A stretch of 61,832 nucleotides of DNA, counting the filler, from Spirochaetales bacterium (lineage in GTDB: Bacteria > Spirochaetota > Spirochaetia > Treponematales > UBA12059), in NCBI GenBank assembly GCA_016928955.1. It is 5 parts of 5 records of this genome, joined end to end, with 100 filler letters (N's around TTAATTAATTAA, not from the genome) between each part and the next. Parts side by side here need not be neighbours in the genome. Positions count along the whole stretch, not along the records: positions 8,941 to 32,515 come from JAFGJV010000011.1; 4 more parts are not named here. One strand, 5' to 3'. A model generated the notes under the pieces. The model had not been told where the DNA came from. It did not search any database and was given only the letters and a program-made list of their open reading frames with translations. Below, piece after piece: positions 8,841 through 56,987 of the stretch. The translations under genes and the position numbers were made by a program. Within the stretch, counting starts at the first letter, position 1. Each line of letters begins with the position of its first letter.

Positions 8841-8940
8841 NNNNNNNNNNNNNNNNNNNNNNNNNNNNNNNNNNNNNNNNNNNNTTAATTAATTAANNNN
8901 NNNNNNNNNNNNNNNNNNNNNNNNNNNNNNNNNNNNNNNN
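8841..8940. other. Artificial contig linker
   Basis: N-run with TTAATTAATTAA six-frame stop, 100 nt. Confidence 0.98.
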
Positions 8941-17546: not shown

Positions 17547-17663
17547 CGCTTGTCGCCTTGCGCTCGCGCGGGCGAAACTGGTACTATAGGGAACCGCCGA
17601 GAGCCATTGCTTCTCGGCGGTTCTCAGCGTTTTTGGCCGAAAGCGCGATGGCTTGGAGGGCGC

Positions 17664-17954
17664 ATGATTTCACGCGAGGATTTCATCTTCACGATCGGGT
17701 ACGAGGGAGAGCTGGCCGTGGTGGACAAGAGCGCCCGCGCTCGCTATGGCAAGCTCGATACCCAGGCTCTTGTGCGTGAAGGTCTGCACAGGGCCGCTTT
17801 TGCCTCCGCCCTGTACTCCGGCAAGGACGACGAATTCCAGCAGTTCGCGGCCGCCTACAACGCACAGGCTGGTACCTCGTATACCAAGCCCGAGGATTTC
17901 CAGCGCCTGTTCGGCGTCAAGCTGGAAAACGTAAGACGGGTCATGTCGCTCTGA
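17664..17954 (+). CDS. Hypothetical protein (96 aa)
   Basis: GGAGG RBS, MISREDFIFTIGYEG..., host-like codon bias. Confidence 0.7.
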   Translation: MISREDFIFTIGYEGELAVVDKSARARYGKLDTQALVREGLHRAAFASALYSGKDDEFQQFAAAYNAQAGTSYTKPEDFQRLFGVKLENVRRVMSL

Positions 17955-20900
17955 TCAGGACACCGGGCCTTGGCCGGCGTGGTAGCCCCTGGCCGCCAGC
18001 GTCTTATCTATGAAAACCTTCCATGCCGGGTCTTCCGGCAAGTCCCGACCCAGTTCCAGGAAGGCCGCGTACGCGTTTTCATAGTCGCCAGAATCGTACA
18101 TGAACACGGCTCTCTCAAAGCGGCCCCTCAGCTCCGCTTTGCGCGCGGTGGCCTGGCTGCCGTCGGGCAGGATGAGCTCGTACATGGGGACCGGGCTGTC
18201 CTCCGGCCTGAACTGGCCGGTTCCAAGGTACCGGATGGTGTACTCGTCCTCGTCGGCCTGCTTGAGTCCTTCCACAACGGTTCCGGACACGATTACCTGG
18301 GCGCCGAACAGCTTGGTTTGGGTTTCCAGCTTGAAGGCCAGTTCCACGGCGTCCGATATGATGGTCCTGTCCATGCGCAGGGTTTCCCCAACGGTACCGA
18401 GCATCAGGTCGCCCGTGTGTATGGCTATGCCGGCTTCTATGCGCTCCTCTCCGGTTGCGGAAAGTTCATCGTTGTACTGGCTCAGGGCCGCCCGCATGGC
18501 CACGGCCGCCCTGACCGCGTCCTTGGGTGAACGCGGGAATATGGCCATCAGCGAGTCGCATATGTACAGGTCAATGAAGCCGCCGTTGGACCTGACCGCC
18601 GGCCCTATTTTGGACAGGTAATTATTGACCCGCTGGAAGATGGCGCTGGGACCCAGGCGGCTGAACAGCTGCCTGAACCCGCGTATGTCCGACACCAGGA
18701 GCGTCATGACGCCCTGGACATGGTCGCCCAGAGCGGTCTGGAGTATGCCGTCCCTGCCGAGAAGCCCCAGAAATTCGGTGGGCACGAACCTGGAGTATGC
18801 TTCCGTTACCTTGGCCAGCTCGATGTGGGTTTTCAGCCGCGCGCGCAACTCGATGATGGACACTGGTTTGGCGACGATGTCGTTGGCGCCGACCATGAAC
18901 GCCGACTCAATGTCCGCAGGCCGGGTGCGGGCGCTCATCAGTATGACCGGCAGGCTGGCGCCGGGCCGCTCCTTTCGTATCAGCGAGCACACCTCAAAAC
19001 CGGACAGCTTGGGCAGCATGACCGACATGAGCACGAGGTCTGGAGCGGGGCTTTCGGCCAGGCGCGTGAGAGCATCCTGCCCGTTGGCCGCCACCAATAC
19101 GTCGTAGCGGTCACGCAGGCCGTTTTCCAGGATGCGGAGGCAGGCGGGGTCGCCTTCCACAACGAGCACGCGGAAACGGGTCGAGTCAGAGAAGGGTCCT
19201 TCGTCGTCCAGGGGTATGAGGTCGTCAACCTCGTCGATGATCGGCGGGGCATCGGGGATGGAGGCAGGCTGGGCCTGGTCGGGGCGGGCGGCGGCCGCAA
19301 GCTCGAATTCGAACTGGCTGCCCTGCCCCGGAAGGCTCTCGGTTTTCAGCGTGCCGCCGTGCAGGTCCACAAGCAGGCGCGCTATGGGCAGGCCAAAGCC
19401 GCCCGCTGTGCCGCCCGCGCTGTGCGAAGGGTCTCCGCCCGTATCCGTTACGGATATTCTGACCGTCCGTCCGTCGCTGTGGGCCTTGACGCTGATGGCG
19501 CCGCGCTCGGTGGATCCTGCCGCCTGTCCTACCAGGTGATAGAGTATCTGCTCAAGCCTGGATTCGTCCGCCAGGACAAATATGTCTGGATCAACCAGGT
19601 TGAAAAAGCCCACGTCCGGTTTTTTAAGGTCCGCGCAGAACCTCAGGGCTATGTCGGTCAGGGGCTTGAGCTCAACGGGCTTTTTCTGGATGGACAGGTC
19701 CTGGTGCTCGAGCCGGGAGTAGTCCTGGATGTCGTCTATGAGCCCGTACAAGCGCCTGCCTGTCCGGGCTATCAGGTCGGCTGTGTCCCTTTCCGCTCCG
19801 CCCAGCTGAGGGGCGGACAGCATGGTTTCAGCCAAAGCGACCATGGTGTTGAGCGGAGAACGCAGTTCGGCCGACGTGGTGGCCAGAAAATCCGCCTTTA
19901 TCTCAGCCTGTTTTTTGAGCTCGCGGTTCTGGGTCAGGAGGGTGGTATGGGCCTCTTTGAGCTCGGCGCTCATGCGGTTAAACGAGGCCGTGAGGCGGCC
20001 AACTTCGTCGTTGGTGGATACCTCAAGTGGTTCCAGTTCCTGGTCCGATTCCAGGCACGATAGCAAGGTCTCAACACCGTTGGCCAGGTTGGTGATGGGT
20101 TGGACAAGCTGGCGCGACAAAATGAGGCCGGCGGCCAAGGCCAGGATGACAGCGGCCATGGTGATGGCGGCCACATAGGCGGCCGCTTCAGACACACCCG
20201 TATCCGGGCTGGGAAGCGATACAGCGGCCAGGTAGCTGGCTGACAGCACGTCCGGCAGCTTGGTCGACCTGACGGTCCTATACGCCCCGTCGCCGCTGAG
20301 GGAGCGCGAGGGCGCGCCCAACGACGAGCCGTTTCCGGGCTCCGGCAAGGGAACGGCAAAGGCCCCCGCCAGGTTCCTGCCAAAGGGGTCGCGGCGCGTG
20401 GTCAGGAGAACCCGCGCCTTTTGTCCCGTCGCCTTGTCTATGATGTCAAAATCAGCGTCCATGGCCGTGGAAAGCACTTCCAACGCGGAACGCTCGATAG
20501 ACACGGCCCCGATGAGGGCTGTGCCGCCCTGGGTGCTAACCCTGCAAAAAATCCTGATGCCGCCCGTATCCACGGTGGCGCTCAGCGGCGGTCCGGTAAG
20601 CCCGGGCCCGTATCCGGCGGCCTCAAAGTCTATCTCGCTCAAAGCATGCGAGCGTAGCCCGCCGTCAGTTTGTTCCCAGGCCAGCCCGTCCAGCTCGTAT
20701 TCGGCCGCCAGGACAGCCAGGCTGGTGGCCAGCTTACCGTTGTCGTGGGCCAGCTCTGTGTAGCGGGGGTCTTCCGACAACTGCCTGGTCCGGGCGACGA
20801 CAAAGCTGACTTTCCGGTTGACGGTGTCGCTGAGATAGGCGCTGGCATACGCAAAGCGGTCCTCAAGACGGGCAGTCTCAACCCCGCCCGATATGCGCGT

Positions 20901-21011
20901 CAGCATCAAGGACAAACCGAGTATGGGCAACCCTATGACAATGGCAAAGGTCAGGAATACCTTGTGGCTGATCCTGGAACTGCTTGCTGATCCTGATTTT
21001 TCCCTCTTCAC
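17955..21011 (-). CDS. Membrane hybrid protein: extracytoplasmic sensor-HAMP-HisKA-HATPase-REC-class III cyclase, all catalytically degenerate
   Basis: Two TM helices, HAMP (DEVGRLTASFNRM), H-box SAELRSPL, REC DLVLMSVMLP, cyclase SDIRGF...GFIDLYICD...DAVELAFKLE. Confidence 0.85.
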   Translation of the reverse strand: MKREKSGSASSSRISHKVFLTFAIVIGLPILGLSLMLTRISGGVETARLEDRFAYASAYLSDTVNRKVSFVVARTRQLSEDPRYTELAHDNGKLATSLAVLAAEYELDGLAWEQTDGGLRSHALSEIDFEAAGYGPGLTGPPLSATVDTGGIRIFCRVSTQGGTALIGAVSIERSALEVLSTAMDADFDIIDKATGQKARVLLTTRRDPFGRNLAGAFAVPLPEPGNGSSLGAPSRSLSGDGAYRTVRSTKLPDVLSASYLAAVSLPSPDTGVSEAAAYVAAITMAAVILALAAGLILSRQLVQPITNLANGVETLLSCLESDQELEPLEVSTNDEVGRLTASFNRMSAELKEAHTTLLTQNRELKKQAEIKADFLATTSAELRSPLNTMVALAETMLSAPQLGGAERDTADLIARTGRRLYGLIDDIQDYSRLEHQDLSIQKKPVELKPLTDIALRFCADLKKPDVGFFNLVDPDIFVLADESRLEQILYHLVGQAAGSTERGAISVKAHSDGRTVRISVTDTGGDPSHSAGGTAGGFGLPIARLLVDLHGGTLKTESLPGQGSQFEFELAAAARPDQAQPASIPDAPPIIDEVDDLIPLDDEGPFSDSTRFRVLVVEGDPACLRILENGLRDRYDVLVAANGQDALTRLAESPAPDLVLMSVMLPKLSGFEVCSLIRKERPGASLPVILMSARTRPADIESAFMVGANDIVAKPVSIIELRARLKTHIELAKVTEAYSRFVPTEFLGLLGRDGILQTALGDHVQGVMTLLVSDIRGFRQLFSRLGPSAIFQRVNNYLSKIGPAVRSNGGFIDLYICDSLMAIFPRSPKDAVRAAVAMRAALSQYNDELSATGEERIEAGIAIHTGDLMLGTVGETLRMDRTIISDAVELAFKLETQTKLFGAQVIVSGTVVEGLKQADEDEYTIRYLGTGQFRPEDSPVPMYELILPDGSQATARKAELRGRFERAVFMYDSGDYENAYAAFLELGRDLPEDPAWKVFIDKTLAARGYHAGQGPVS

Positions 21012-22552
21012 GGCGTGGTTATCCTGCCCAGGGTTCCGGGTGCCACGCTGGACCGGTCCTGGAGCGCGGATTCAAGGATTCCCAGAATGGACGGCTCGTA
21101 GAAGCGTTCGCGCGCCAGGCCCATATCCGCAAAGTCGGTGTATCCGTCTCCCCCGCCAAAAATATACGCTTCCGTGCCCAACAGGTACACGGCATTGGGA
21201 TCCAGGGCCTTCCCGCCCACGCGGACGCTGGAAGGCAGCACCTGGTTCATGGGCGCGCGTTGCGGGTCCCAGGCAAAGCTTATGCCGGATACCTGGAGGA
21301 AGCCCCTGCCAGCCTGGGGCGCGCCCACAAAGGTGCAGCTTCTGTTGAGGATGCGCAGGAGCTGGGCTCCGGTCACCCGCGCCGTTACCACGTTGCCTCC
21401 GAAGGGAAGCGTGTCGTACACCTGCTTGCGCGTGATGGGTCCTTGCTGGAACGACGATCTGATCTTGCCAGAATTAAGCAGAAACACGTCGGCGCCGCAG
21501 TATTCCCTGAGTATGTCGGTGACCAGGTTGCCCATGCTGCATTCGTTTTCCGGGTCAAGGAAAAAATCGGCCGTGGCGGTGGCCACGGTGGCGTTCATGG
21601 TGCCCGACGTGGCGTTTTCTATGGAGTAGAGCAGGTCCGCCAGGGCCTGGTCCGGAGAAAACTCCCTGGAGTCGACGCTGACCGGCCGGAAGCTTGAGCC
21701 CTCCGGAGACGTGGCTATCAGCGTGTCGGCCACCATGAAGCCGTTGGTATAGCGGGCGCCGGACTGTATTACGATGACGCGGGGCCCGAGTTCCGTCTCC
21801 AGGACAGTCATGCCGTCCGGGAAGTCCGGCGACGGCGACCCGAACCAGTACTGGTCGATGCCTTCCAGCCTGAGGAGACGCTCCGCCGTTACGGCGTCTT
21901 GTGAGCCCTCAGGCGCTCCCCACACCACGCCGCCGGCGAACAGGCCTATGGTCTTGGCCCCGAGCCTGGACAGCTCAGCTAGCGTCTCGGATACGGCCTG
22001 GACCTCGTCAACCAGCTCAAGGCCTCTGACGTTCTGTTCCAGGTTTTGCTGGATGAGCTGTCGCGGCGCAAGGCCTATGAGGCCGACCTTGGCCCGCTGA
22101 TCCCAGAAATACGGCTTGAGGTAGGGAACGGGTGTGCCGTTGGCCAGGCGGACGTTGGCGGCCAGGAAGGGGAAGTCGGCCTTGCCCGCGAGGGTTTCCA
22201 GAGCATTGAGCCCGAAATAAAATTCGCGCGGGCCCACCACCAGGGCGTCAAAGCCGGACGCGTTCATCAGCTCCACCACGGCCTGGCCCTCGGAAAAATG
22301 GGCCTCTGGGGTGCCATGTATGGCGTTGAACACGGCCACCGTGTATACCGGCTGGCCCTCTGACAGGTTTTTGGCCTTTTTCAGGGCGGATGACAGGAGG
22401 GAGAAGCCTCCGCGGTACACACCGTCCTGTTCGATAGGCCACAGTTGGCCCCTGAGCGAGTTGACATGGAGCACGCGCGCCTTCTGCGCGGGGGAGCAGG
22501 AAAAAGCCAGTACGGAAAGCACGACGATACGCAAGAGAACCGATCTTTTCAT
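21008..22552 (-). CDS. 5'-nucleotidase-fold lipoprotein with degenerate metallophosphoesterase site
   Basis: Lipobox LAFSC; FPFLAANV; C-domain NSGKIR, LPFGG, FLQVSG, GGGDGY; metal motifs replaced (HVNSLRG, GPREF). Confidence 0.85.
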   Translation of the reverse strand: MKRSVLLRIVVLSVLAFSCSPAQKARVLHVNSLRGQLWPIEQDGVYRGGFSLLSSALKKAKNLSEGQPVYTVAVFNAIHGTPEAHFSEGQAVVELMNASGFDALVVGPREFYFGLNALETLAGKADFPFLAANVRLANGTPVPYLKPYFWDQRAKVGLIGLAPRQLIQQNLEQNVRGLELVDEVQAVSETLAELSRLGAKTIGLFAGGVVWGAPEGSQDAVTAERLLRLEGIDQYWFGSPSPDFPDGMTVLETELGPRVIVIQSGARYTNGFMVADTLIATSPEGSSFRPVSVDSREFSPDQALADLLYSIENATSGTMNATVATATADFFLDPENECSMGNLVTDILREYCGADVFLLNSGKIRSSFQQGPITRKQVYDTLPFGGNVVTARVTGAQLLRILNRSCTFVGAPQAGRGFLQVSGISFAWDPQRAPMNQVLPSSVRVGGKALDPNAVYLLGTEAYIFGGGDGYTDFADMGLARERFYEPSILGILESALQDRSSVAPGTLGRITTP

Positions 22553-22950
22553 GGTGCCTCCCCCGGGCAGCCTCGTCATACGCCAACGCACGACCCCGAA
22601 CGGCGATGTTATTAACAGCTTACATTATTACACTCATGCTGACGCCGAGGAAGTATATAATATTGTGGGGCGGAAAAACAGGCGGAATCGTTCTTGTCGC
22701 CTGCCCGCGTCTTGGCTATATTTGGTTAGGTTCCGGTGCCTTGCGTAGTGGTGTGTTCCCGCTGTCTTGATGGGCACATACGTTTTTGGTTCCGGTATCA
22801 AGCAGCCCTTGCCAGCGCCCGGTGCGCGCTCGGGGGCTCTGGTCTCCTGGTTTGACCCGGATATGCCGTCGCGCGTTCGCGGACGGGAATTCCGGTACCG
22901 CGCCCGTTGTAGGGGCGGATCATACGCGGCACTGCCGCTGGAGGATCAGT

Positions 22951-23658
22951 ATGAGAAAAGGATTCTTTATCGTTACGGCTGCCACCTTGGCCGTAGCCGG
23001 CGCCTCGGCCCTGAGCGTCAAAGGCAACGGCACGGTGGTTACCCAGGAACGAGACCTGTCGGGCTTCACATCCGTATCCGCGACCTCGGTGGAGGAAGTT
23101 TCCATAGAAAAAGGGAACGAATTCTCCGTTACGGTCACCATGGACCAAAACCTCCTGTCCAGTTACGAGACAAACGTGTCCGGCGGAACCCTGCACCTGG
23201 GCTTCAAGTCCGGCGTATCCGTATCGGCCATTACCAAGCTGCATGTCCATGTGGTCATGCCCGAGCTCAGGTCGGTCAGCGGTTCCGGTACGGGCACGTT
23301 CACCATAGCCAAAGGCTTCTCCGGAGCCGAGTTTGCGGCCTCCCTGTCCGGCACCGGCTCCCTGCGCGCCCATCTTGACTACAAAAAGGTCAGGATAGAC
23401 ATCAGCGGCACGGGCCAGGCCGAACTGAGCGGCAAAGCGGACGACGTCAAGGTTGCCATATCCGGCGCCGGGTCGCTGTCCGGCAGGTCCTTCCAGGCAA
23501 GGACGGCGACCCTGTCCATCAGTGGCACCGGTTCCATGAAAATCAGCGTTACCGACAACCTGGACGCCGTTATCAGCGGCTTGGGATCAATAATCTATTA
23601 CGGCTCGCCCAAGGTGGATCAACGCATATCGGGCTTGGGCAGCGTACAGAGGGGCTGA
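22951..23658 (+). CDS. Secreted GIN-domain (DUF2807-like) protein
   Basis: Signal peptide, VKGNGTVVTQER..GF, repeated ISGxGS beta-helix motifs, YYGSP tail. Confidence 0.85.
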   Translation: MRKGFFIVTAATLAVAGASALSVKGNGTVVTQERDLSGFTSVSATSVEEVSIEKGNEFSVTVTMDQNLLSSYETNVSGGTLHLGFKSGVSVSAITKLHVHVVMPELRSVSGSGTGTFTIAKGFSGAEFAASLSGTGSLRAHLDYKKVRIDISGTGQAELSGKADDVKVAISGAGSLSGRSFQARTATLSISGTGSMKISVTDNLDAVISGLGSIIYYGSPKVDQRISGLGSVQRG

Positions 23659-32374: not shown

Positions 32375-32780
32375 AAAAACAAAGGCCGCGCATGAGCGCG
32401 GCTTTTGCTTTTTGACGAAGCAGGAGTGGGACTCGAACAGTAGCGAGCGCGCGCCGCATAGGCGCGAACAGCGCGTATGATACGCGCGGAAGCGAGCGGA
32501 TGCGTCCGAGGGCCCNNNNNNNNNNNNNNNNNNNNNNNNNNNNNNNNNNNNNNNNNNNNTTAATTAATTAANNNNNNNNNNNNNNNNNNNNNNNNNNNNN
32601 NNNNNNNNNNNNNNNATGATACGCGCGGAAGCGAGCGGATGCGTCCGAGGGCCCGAGCCAGGACGGCATGGGCCCGAGGAAGAGTCCTACCCCTGCTAAA
32701 AAGCAAAGGCCGCGCATGAGCGCGGCCTTTGCTTTTTGACGAAGCAGGAGTAGGACTCGAACAGTAGCGAGCGCGCGCCG
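32358..32780 (+). repeat. tRNA-linked tandem repeat (~185-bp unit), spans a gap
   Basis: GAGTCCTACCCCTGCTAAAAA + hairpin + AGCAGGAGT(G/A)GGACTCGAAC at 32358 and 32682; 39 identical bp on both sides of the gap. Confidence 0.85.
32516..32615. other. Artificial contig linker
   Basis: N-run with TTAATTAATTAA. Confidence 0.98.
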
Positions 32781-38628: not shown

Positions 38629-38728
38629 NNNNNNNNNNNNNNNNNNNNNNNNNNNNNNNNNNNNNNNNNNNNTTAATTAATTAANNNNNNNNNNNNNNNN
38701 NNNNNNNNNNNNNNNNNNNNNNNNNNNN
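38629..38728. other. Artificial contig linker
   Basis: N-run with TTAATTAATTAA. Confidence 0.98.
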
Positions 38729-56887: not shown

Positions 56888-56987
56888 NNNNNNNNNNNNN
56901 NNNNNNNNNNNNNNNNNNNNNNNNNNNNNNNTTAATTAATTAANNNNNNNNNNNNNNNNNNNNNNNNNNNNNNNNNNNNNNNNNNNN
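56888..56987. other. Artificial contig linker
   Basis: N-run with TTAATTAATTAA. Confidence 0.98.

Follow-up and report, generated by a model that had tools for sequence, protein, structure and literature searches.

A 5'-nucleotidase-fold lipoprotein without its metal site and a kinase–cyclase-like receptor without phosphotransfer residues, encoded as a gene pair in a Spirochaetales bacterium

The window analysed here is a stretch of 61,832 nucleotides from the genome of a Spirochaetales bacterium (GCA_016928955.1). At 17955..22552, on the minus strand, it carries two overlapping genes, one for a lipoprotein with a 5'-nucleotidase fold and one for a membrane receptor in which a dCache-like sensor is followed by HAMP, HisKA, HATPase_c, REC and class III cyclase domains. 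Judged by its residues, the lipoprotein is devoid of every side chain needed for hydrolysis; by the same measure, the receptor cannot autophosphorylate at the canonical site, nor can its receiver accept phosphate. As far as aligned residues tell, the clade is marked by losses of both nucleotidase chemistry and phosphotransfer. The shared loss of the H-box His, the receiver Asp and the nucleotidase ligands, together with low ratios of non-synonymous to synonymous substitution rates (dN/dS) in a sister genus, makes a phosphorylation-independent receptor with a dead-nucleotidase co-sensor the best reading. On balance, we regard it as somewhat probable that the pair constitutes a two-part envelope receptor derived from former enzymes, with a pseudo-nucleotidase as co-sensor and a signal that is passed conformationally.

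Locus and domain organisation

The locus lies on a contig of 23,575 bp (8941-32515 of the window) from a 2.87-Mb genome that is 99% complete. This source genome is denoted G000; other G numbers refer to genomes of relatives and P numbers to database proteins. Runs of N join contigs at window positions 8841-8940, 32516-32615, 38629-38728 and 56888-56987, and the finding is confined to 8941-32515. The original prediction, made from the sequence of this stretch, described two overlapping, uninterrupted open reading frames (ORFs), which holds: the minus-strand ORFs 21008..22591(-) and 17955..21011(-), the latter of 1018 aa, are uninterrupted. The lipoprotein probably starts at the ATG at 22552, which GGGGGAGG precedes by five bases, giving a product of 514 aa. 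Four nucleotides (GTGA) are shared by the two genes, combining the TGA stop of the first (21008-21010) with the GTG start of the second (21009-21011). All Pfam domains of the receptor score above their curated cut-offs, and substitutions were read residue by residue from alignments to solved structures and to canonical paralogues of the same genome. The features are as follows.

21008..22552, minus strand: lipoprotein gene, pseudo-5'-nucleotidase, 514 aa (ORF, GGGGGAGG before the ATG, Pfam, AlphaFold, Foldseek)
22496..22552, minus strand: putative signal peptide and lipobox (VLAFSC, Cys19), read from the sequence
21653..22483, minus strand: N-terminal metallophosphatase-fold domain, metal and catalytic positions all replaced (alignments to UshA, 3ivd and two in-genome paralogues)
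21128..21553, minus strand: C-terminal 5'-nucleotidase substrate-binding domain (Pfam 5_nucleotid_C, E 1.3e-36; UshA alignment)
17955..21011, minus strand: membrane receptor gene, pseudo-hybrid-kinase/cyclase, 1018 aa (ORF, Pfam, GTG start in the upstream stop)
20187..20894, minus strand: periplasmic sensor, residues ~40-275, between two transmembrane helices, dCache-like double-PDC (AlphaFold, Foldseek)
19956..20120, minus strand: HAMP, residues 298-352 (Pfam, E 2.8e-7)
19704..19898, minus strand: HisKA/DHp, residues 372-436, Ala381 in place of His (Pfam, alignments)
19296..19568, minus strand: HATPase_c-like (CA) domain, residues 482-572, N-box Asn lost and ATP lid shortened (Pfam, motif tables against 15 canonical relatives)
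18834..19169, minus strand: pseudo-receiver, residues 615-726 (Pfam, E 7e-21; alignments to PleD and others)
18234..18707, minus strand: class III cyclase-homology domain, residues 769-926 (Pfam; alignments to Cya2, CyaB and bPAC)
17958..18176, minus strand: C-terminal helical tail, residues 946-1018 (tblastn to paralogues C54 and C52, reaching residue ~1005-1009)

A 5'-nucleotidase fold without its metal site

The N-terminus of the lipoprotein reads MKRSVLLRIVVLSVLAFSC; the lipobox was identified by eye, and an equivalent Cys is found in 10/10 orthologues. Pfam recognises 5_nucleotid_C alone (residues 334-475, 126.5 bits), with no Metallophos match at E<=0.1. Still, the AlphaFold model (pLDDT 90.2) matches full-length 5'-nucleotidases in Foldseek, namely Thermus 2z1a, CD73 and UshA, at E 1e-38 to 1e-34. 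Alignment with UshA, the numbering of which was checked against the 1ush alignment, gave the replacements D41→S32, H43→R34, D84→N76, N116→P108, H117→R109, D120→Y112 and H217→A206, and further H252/Q254→S239/S241. Residues D41, H43, D84, N116, H217, H252 and Q254 are the di-metal ligands of UshA, and D120-H117 is its catalytic dyad. All seven ligands and the dyad are thus replaced, in the alignment to UshA as well as in those to the paralogues, as the original prediction had stated for the metal ligands. With conserved Arg, Asn, Tyr and Pro residues in place of the di-metal site, the lipoprotein is not expected to hydrolyse. The nucleoside pocket is intact, as seen from R365 (LNSGKIR), F384 (PFGG), Y463 and D469 (GGGDGY). 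Both the pocket residues and the substitutes N76, P108, R109, Y112 and A206 are invariant in 26/26 sequences of the lipoprotein family.

Two canonical 5'-nucleotidases are encoded elsewhere in the genome, at G000:C15:27376-29031 (L044:3377-5032) and G000:C43:22917-24518 (L045:1918-3519). Both give Metallophos matches and have intact NDxH, GD, GNHEF and GHxH motifs. Hydrolysis is thus covered, and the pseudo-nucleotidase is an extra, diverged copy.

Sensor, kinase-like core and receiver

The sensor domain gave no Pfam match, dCache and sCache included, in receptor residues 1-297 at E<=0.1. Its AlphaFold model (pLDDT 84.1, pTM 0.75) matches PctA, DctB, Tlp3 and McpH in Foldseek (E ~1e-7, probability 1.0, TM 0.42-0.56), and the fold follows the dCache pattern of a long N-terminal helix and two alpha/beta PDC modules between two transmembrane helices. 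Sub-threshold sCache_3_3 matches were obtained for the distant sensor relatives P0118 and P0120. Among the distant relatives of the sensor, P0119-P0121 and P0124-P0126 (E 1e-13 to 1e-4) carry SpoIIE/PP2C phosphatase outputs in place of a kinase–cyclase part, showing that the domain has been reused with other outputs.

The HisKA domain (38.0 bits, cut-off 26.9) carries the H-box SAELRSPL, compared to SHE elsewhere, and Ala381 (codon 19869-19871) aligns to the His of solved kinases. The residues beside the lost His, E382, L383, R384, P386 and L387, are retained, and the DHp is the most conserved receptor domain among orthologues. In the HATPase_c-like domain (45.8 bits, cut-off 26.4) the N-box reads YHLVGQAAGST, compared to NLxGNAxKFT elsewhere, with N492→H, N496→Q and K499→G. 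Between G1 and G2 the segment of the ATP lid is deleted, and with it the second G1 Gly and six lid columns; the first G2 Gly is replaced by Ala, and D523, G525, G538 and G540 are retained. The receiver (74.9 bits, cut-off 30.2) reads PDLVLMSVMLP around the phosphoacceptor position, which is Ser663 (codon 19023-19025) instead of Asp, and the acidic pair DD has become E619-G620, while the conserved Ser693 and Lys715 are kept. The losses of the His, the N-box, the ATP lid and the receiver Asp in the original prediction were thereby reproduced in alignments to structures and paralogues. Its description of all domains as degenerate stands for the named residues, but it missed the retained Ser693 and Lys715 of the receiver and the intact nucleoside pocket of the lipoprotein.

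Outside the orthologues, the closest proteins are hybrid HisKA-HATPase-REC-cyclases whose sensors differ; identity is 33-37% over the cytoplasmic part. In 15/15 of them the kinase motifs (His, both N-box Asn, G1/G2) and the receiver residues (DD, Asp, Thr, Lys) are kept, as are the cyclase Asn and Arg in 14/14 with a cyclase. As the canonical residues occur in all of these relatives, the ancestor is concluded to have been a real phosphorelay-controlled cyclase. A test set of 149 columns, near-invariant across 15 canonical relatives, contained 19 columns designated a priori as catalytic or nucleotide-binding. G000 keeps 97/149 columns overall; changes affect 12/19 of the functional columns compared to 40/130 of the others (Fisher one-sided p=0.007), so that the predicted focus of the losses on catalytic positions is upheld.

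Distribution of the pair and state of the residues across relatives

Among 40 relatives searched, lipoprotein orthologues of 44-63% identity were found in nine genomes, spanning five genera of one family, and the next-best matches do not exceed 33% identity. The pair, first described from G000, recurs in each case: the receptor gene comes next on the same strand in 9/9 of these genomes, as far as the contigs reach. The junction is a 4-nt overlap in G000 and G008, and in the other loci either leaves 4-65 nt between the ORFs or lies inside overlapping open frames (G019), always on one strand. Among the 40 relatives, the sensor domain was found in the same nine genomes and in G001, which is 67% complete. 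The G001 copy (L046:2614-5679 (-), G001:C131; 1021 aa) is divergent, with His→Lys, receiver Asp→Gly and the cyclase motifs gone. Beyond these relatives, the lipoprotein family amounts to 27 clusters, none with a Metallophos match, followed by a gap to canonical enzymes at <=27% identity. A word-index search with the sensor region yielded 2 proteins, and a full HMMER search was used for the family; at E<=0.001 it found the domain in only 20 representatives out of 1.84 billion, and at E<=1e-30 in nine. The source names on orthologous proteins are "Spirochaetaceae bacterium", "Spirochaetales bacterium" and, once, "Clostridia bacterium". The neighbourhood of radA, DUF2807, the pair, desulfoferrodoxin, rubrerythrin and radC is syntenic across the family.

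The H-box His is absent in 12/14 readable members, a count that leaves out one masked and one truncated member, and A, S, T, Q, R or K stands in its place. In the receptor orthologue L033 (G015:C430) the H-box codons are masked as N; the 71%-identical P0112 has Arg there. The receiver Asp is absent in 9/10 members with a receiver, the exception being P0054. ATP-site motifs are intact in G012 and P0054 and differently broken in other lineages; such lineage-by-lineage decay of the CA domain is expected from relaxed constraint on ATP binding after loss of the kinase. Five members end after the CA domain and have no REC-cyclase part; among these short forms, P0112 (R) and P0114 (S) are without the His. 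G000 is alone among the close members in its EG acidic pair and in the loss of the first N-box Asn and of the cyclase Lys and Asn. An ordering of the losses by a rooted lipoprotein tree, with two canonical paralogues as outgroup, was set aside, as 5/9 inner branches were open and the deep forks unresolved; the outgroup branches measured 5.5 and 9.7.

The cyclase-homology domain

The domain is recognised as Guanylate_cyc (30.0 bits, cut-off 21.9) and matches Cya2 (E 1e-19) and CyaB (2e-14) in the PDB. In G000 the Lys, Asn and Arg positions are occupied by Leu815, Glu890 and Lys894, while both metal-binding Asp, D775 (SDIRGF) and D819 (ICD), and Thr883 are retained. The loss of K/N/R in the original prediction is thus correct, but the retained metal Asp and Thr883 were missed there. 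The transition-state Asn and Arg occur together in 14/14 canonical relatives and in 8/11 other cyclase domains of the genome. Among readable family members, 1/9 has the complete canonical set of six, namely G022, the closest orthologue of G000. Because G022 keeps D, K, D, T, N and R, the degeneracy of the G000 cyclase is lineage-specific and not a family trait. Retention of catalytic residues in close orthologues, which had been named as evidence against the proposal, was accordingly observed in part, for this one domain. In the other members the Arg alone is absent (G013, G002, P0053), Glu stands at both the Lys and the Arg positions (P0054), or every cyclase motif and the Pfam match are gone (G011, P0113, P0115); the Arg is lost in 8/9 members with the region.

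The 2.87-Mb genome contains 12 class III cyclase-domain matches, on contigs C1, C3, C4, C6, C15, C22, C25 (2), C31, C41, C52 and C54. In two proteins of ~1000 aa (C6, C4), whose cyclase domain is N-terminal, the Asn position is occupied by Ala, and a TPR_2 match is found in the tail of the paralogue on C52. The nearest paralogue, the 7TMR-DISM cyclase of C54, is fully canonical and 40% identical over residues 727-1009.

These data bear on the possibility that the output is still a cyclic nucleotide, made either in a composite active site with a canonical cyclase paralogue (C1/C2-like) or by a low activity of the receptor itself. Class III cyclases have two faces that can come from different subunits, as in mammalian C1/C2, and the pattern in G000 would suit such an arrangement, D775, D819 and T883 being kept while the residues of the other face are replaced by L815, E890 and K894. 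A canonical C54 among 12 cyclase matches, the six residues of G022 and a cyclase dN/dS of 0.12 in the sister genus point the same way. Conversely, no mirror-image C2-like partner (Asp absent, Lys/Asn/Arg kept) was found among the 12 domains of the genome; a cyclase of 379 aa on C25 keeps Asn and Arg, but it also lacks the Lys. The loss of the Arg in all but one member and of every motif in three argues further against this explanation, and with five members devoid of the REC-cyclase part a cyclase output cannot be the conserved function of the family. We therefore consider a cyclic-nucleotide output rather unlikely.

Selection, strain variation and occurrence

For the sister-genus pair G002 and G013, dN/dS is 0.086 for the lipoprotein and 0.113 for the receptor, at dS values of 0.9-2.1 that are near saturation. 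By domain the ratio is 0.04 for DHp (92% identity), 0.06 for REC, 0.11 for HAMP, 0.12 for the cyclase, 0.15 for the sensor and 0.16 for CA. For the G000 lineage itself, two short 99%-identical contigs gave 10 and 4 codon differences, too few for an estimate. In terms of these figures, both genes are maintained by selection in relatives, and the view that they are kept and not decaying is borne out by intact frames and low sister-genus values. As expected in the original prediction, loss of the His, the receiver Asp and the nucleotidase ligands is shared among relatives, but that of the cyclase residues is not; dN/dS was below 1 in every domain (0.04-0.16 in the sister genus).

Other assemblies yielded five full-length variants of 99% identity, all of them intact, with differences at 8-10 residues. 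Strain differences were compiled from four runs, and 40 of 53 were listed. Among those listed, the receptor shows 13 synonymous and 11 non-synonymous differences (ratio corrected for sites, pN/pS, ~0.29), and the lipoprotein 2 synonymous and 6 non-synonymous ones (pN/pS ~1 on these 8 differences, with 13 more unlisted). Over residues 620-1018, G000 and contig L040 differ by 7 synonymous and 3 non-synonymous codons. L040 is a 1545-bp metagenome contig, 99% identical, in which 44 extra nt between REC and cyclase (L040:408-452) split the frame (P0098, P0099); this insertion could stem from the assembly or mark a genuinely disrupted allele. The cyclase domain of G000 is 53-57% identical to its orthologues, and a three-point comparison of identities by hand indicated that it is not accelerated relative to the other domains. 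Sequencing runs from 11 studies, on sludge, wastewater, digesters and sediment, contain the stretch. Contigs from one RNA library cover 17705-22900 almost wholly, and one of 2260 nt spans the gene junction, with DNA carry-over possible. Logan contigs cannot show expression level, strand or transcript ends and were not used to rank expression.

Thus, the notion that the G000 locus is a decaying, functionless remnant, to whose lineage the constraint on orthologues does not apply, appears very improbable. It would account for the most degenerate residue set among the close members of the family, for the pN/pS of ~1 in the lipoprotein and for the split frame of L040. It is at odds with 4.6 kb free of stops and frameshifts in G000 and five other full-length assemblies, with the low receptor pN/pS and the excess of synonymous differences to L040, with the 97/149 near-invariant columns kept, with a cyclase domain diverged no more than its neighbours, and with the RNA-library contigs that cross the operon and its junction (subject to the same carry-over).

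A second explanation attributes the function to the pseudo-kinase core, with the REC-cyclase tail being vestigial: the core would modulate another kinase or regulator, as in RetS-GacS or DivL-DivK/CckA, or act as a ligand-controlled phosphatase. The part common to all members is indeed the lipoprotein plus sensor, HAMP, DHp and CA; five members stop there, two of which (P0112, P0114) are without the His. Moreover, constraint is strongest on DHp, the neighbours of the lost His are retained, sequence searches against solved structures match DivL and RetS, and pseudo-histidine kinases inside two-component networks are described (PMC12632262). On the other hand, no partner kinase or regulator lies beside the pair in the seven loci with scanned flanks, REC is the second most constrained domain, which fits a vestige poorly, and the same paper argues that phosphatase activity is unlikely as a general function of pseudo-histidine kinases (PMC12632262). 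Taken together, this explanation is regarded as distinctly unlikely.

Proposed mechanism

In the reading favoured here, a phosphorylation-independent receptor with a pseudo-nucleotidase co-sensor, the lipoprotein would bind a nucleoside or nucleotide in the C-terminal pocket for base stacking and ribose/phosphate, with Arg34, Asn76, Arg109 and Tyr112 presumably standing in for the metals. By analogy to true 5'-nucleotidases it may close on the ligand, and it could then dock on the dCache-like domain as LuxP does on LuxQ. Complex prediction for the lipoprotein and the sensor domain gave an ipSAE of 0.37, compared to 0.00 for the best of 3 controls; the runs agree in >=97% of contacts, at a partner pLDDT of at least 78. 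For calibration, the mark at <=0.60 was reached by 18/157 solved complexes and by both of the mismatched pairs that passed (2/215). The prediction thus lends weak support to a lipoprotein–sensor complex. The earlier idea that a dead nucleotidase presents the ligand has to this extent been modelled, and presentation itself stays conjectural.

Without H-box His, ATP site or receiver Asp, any signal must pass as a conformational change through the dimeric scaffold. By analogy to Dictyostelium ACR, it may run along the HAMP-DHp-CA-REC scaffold. Given that the cyclase Lys, Asn and Arg are absent in G000, the output is most likely not cAMP made by a homodimer. A regulated protein–protein contact via the DHp, the pseudo-REC or the cyclase-like dimer would be more plausible; as further candidate outputs, the receptor might pair with a canonical cyclase as a heterodimer or act on a different two-component system in the manner of DivL or RetS. 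In its most specific form the proposal is that a metal-free periplasmic receptor for nucleotides or nucleosides, a former 5'-nucleotidase, docks on a dCache sensor and drives an all-pseudoenzyme chain, so that extracellular nucleotides are sensed without catalysis before the final output. This version is tentative, and as a whole we hold it to be doubtful.

Several observations weigh against the favoured reading. The complex score falls into a zone that is more often wrong than right unless the guess is already likely. As the whole neighbourhood is syntenic, the adjacency of the two genes partly reflects common ancestry and is weak evidence of coupling. No lipoprotein gene is present in the 383 bp left upstream of the receptor on the G001 contig. 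The His is kept in two members, solely short g9 forms (G008, G019). The Lys position of the cyclase, which specifies the substrate and has Glu/Gln variants, varies among the canonical relatives (Q 9, K 3, R 1 and S 1 of 14), and with both metal Asp and Thr883 kept, residual or heterodimeric cyclase activity may persist. Finally, the selection figures, already near saturation, describe the sister genus and not G000, and the strain differences listed for the lipoprotein show no excess of synonymous changes.

Some of these points favour an alternative in which the lipoprotein is no co-sensor at all, and instead has a separate role in nucleoside or nucleotide binding (scavenging, or handover of the ligand to a transporter), its adjacency being inherited. 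The conserved neighbourhood and the weak complex prediction are compatible with this, and dCache domains, as represented by the Foldseek matches, usually take small ligands directly. Yet the genes overlap by 4 nt in G000 and G008 and form close same-strand junctions in the other loci. Orthologue and sensor co-occur in the same 9/40 relatives, with one extra, divergent sensor in the 67%-complete genome, and both families are small and restricted to one lineage (27 lipoprotein clusters; 20 sensor representatives of 1.84 billion). Moreover, no transporter gene adjoins the pair in the seven loci with scanned flanks. An independent lipoprotein is thus judged unlikely.

Comparison with known systems

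CyaC of cyanobacteria works by phosphorelay. CyaC-type bacterial hybrids (P0055-P0069) show the same cytoplasmic order as the G000 receptor, at 33-37% identity over ~63% of the protein. They differ in having the phosphorelay residues (15/15) and the cyclase Asn and Arg (14/14), and in their sensors, which are of the TPR, GAF, dCache, 7TMR-DISM or Reg_prop type.

In LuxP-LuxQ and TorT-TorS the gene for a separate periplasmic protein that binds the ligand adjoins one for a membrane hybrid kinase, whose periplasmic part is of the double-PAS/PDC type. The NCBIfam models of LuxQ and TorS match the cytoplasmic part of the receptor below cut-off. However, LuxP and TorT have the fold of periplasmic binding proteins, and their partners LuxQ and TorS are active kinases/phosphatases, whereas the G000 pair combines a dead 5'-nucleotidase, the binding of which is weakly supported by the model, with a receptor that has no phosphorylation sites. 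To UshA and CD73 the lipoprotein is similar in its full two-domain fold, its C-terminal substrate pocket and its predicted periplasmic or lipid-anchored location, and dissimilar in the absence of the seven metal ligands, the Asp-His dyad and a Metallophos match.

Pseudo-receivers also have counterparts. CikA reportedly is a hybrid kinase with a pseudo-receiver that has no phospho-accepting Asp. Asp-less receivers in hybrid kinases such as ShkA act by docking or ligand binding (PMC12632262). In ShkA and CikA the kinase is active, unlike that of G000 as predicted from its residues. DivL, RetS and PsmA are histidine-kinase-like proteins that signal without autophosphorylation of their own; PsmA, a hybrid, is without the His (PMC12963549). 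A cyclase domain and a pseudo-nucleotidase partner are missing from all three, and for DivL and RetS, unlike the G000 receptor, the kinases or regulators acted upon are known.

The receptor has a partial precedent in Dictyostelium ACR. Its His-less HisKA domain is essential for cyclase activity and enforces dimerisation of the cyclase, and phosphorelay is not critical (PMC3009899). As in G000, a membrane protein with a HisKA domain lacking the canonical His continues into an HATPase, one or more receivers and a class III cyclase. ACR differs in being eukaryotic and in having seven transmembrane helices, two Asp-bearing receivers and an active cyclase. The G000 receptor has additionally lost the Asp of its receiver, its ATP site and three cyclase residues (Lys, Asn, Arg), and it comes with a dCache-like sensor and a dedicated lipoprotein partner. 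By its residues G000 would not have the competent cyclase output of ACR, whereas its orthologue G022 has all six.

In the open full-text literature, which does not cover subscription journals, we found neither a dead 5'-nucleotidase homologue paired with a sensor kinase nor a signalling chain with degeneracy at every level, from the partner enzyme through kinase and receiver to the cyclase. The ACR design is already on record, as are pseudo-receivers and pseudo-histidine kinases as classes. The original statement that no system of this kind was known therefore has to be narrowed: ACR is a partial precedent for the receptor (PMC3009899), whereas the lipoprotein partner appears undescribed.

If correct, this reading would provide a natural series in which a phosphorelay-controlled cyclase turns into a purely conformational receptor. 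Extant intermediates would be P0054 (His lost, ATP site and Asp intact) and G012 (His and Asp lost, ATP site intact), and G000 and G011 would represent the end stage, with everything lost. The dead 5'-nucleotidase would likewise constitute a new kind of accessory sensor beside the known binding-protein co-sensors. The family is small and tractable for asking what scaffolds of pseudo-kinases and pseudo-receivers transmit. In terms of annotation, the database labels "5'-nucleotidase" and "sensor histidine kinase ChiS" are unsupported by the residues.

Flanking genes and transcription signals

A gene for a DUF2807 protein (window 22786-23658, plus strand) lies divergently beside the pair in G000, G013, G002 and G011. 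A VWA/CsgG-LpoB-like protein is encoded in the upstream flank of six orthologue loci, among them L029, L031, L032, L034 and L036; in G000 no such gene is present between DUF2807 and radA. A scan for promoters and terminators returned 3 promoter-like sites (1.2 expected) and 8 terminator-like sites (4.8 expected), none of which is positioned to define a transcript. A 15-pair hairpin with a T-run is found at window 17589-17625 (+), inside a 134-aa ORF at 17550-17954, and looks like the terminator of the rubrerythrin/desulfoferrodoxin genes. If the hairpin serves as a terminator, this small convergent ORF (17550-17954) probably begins later, at MISREDF.

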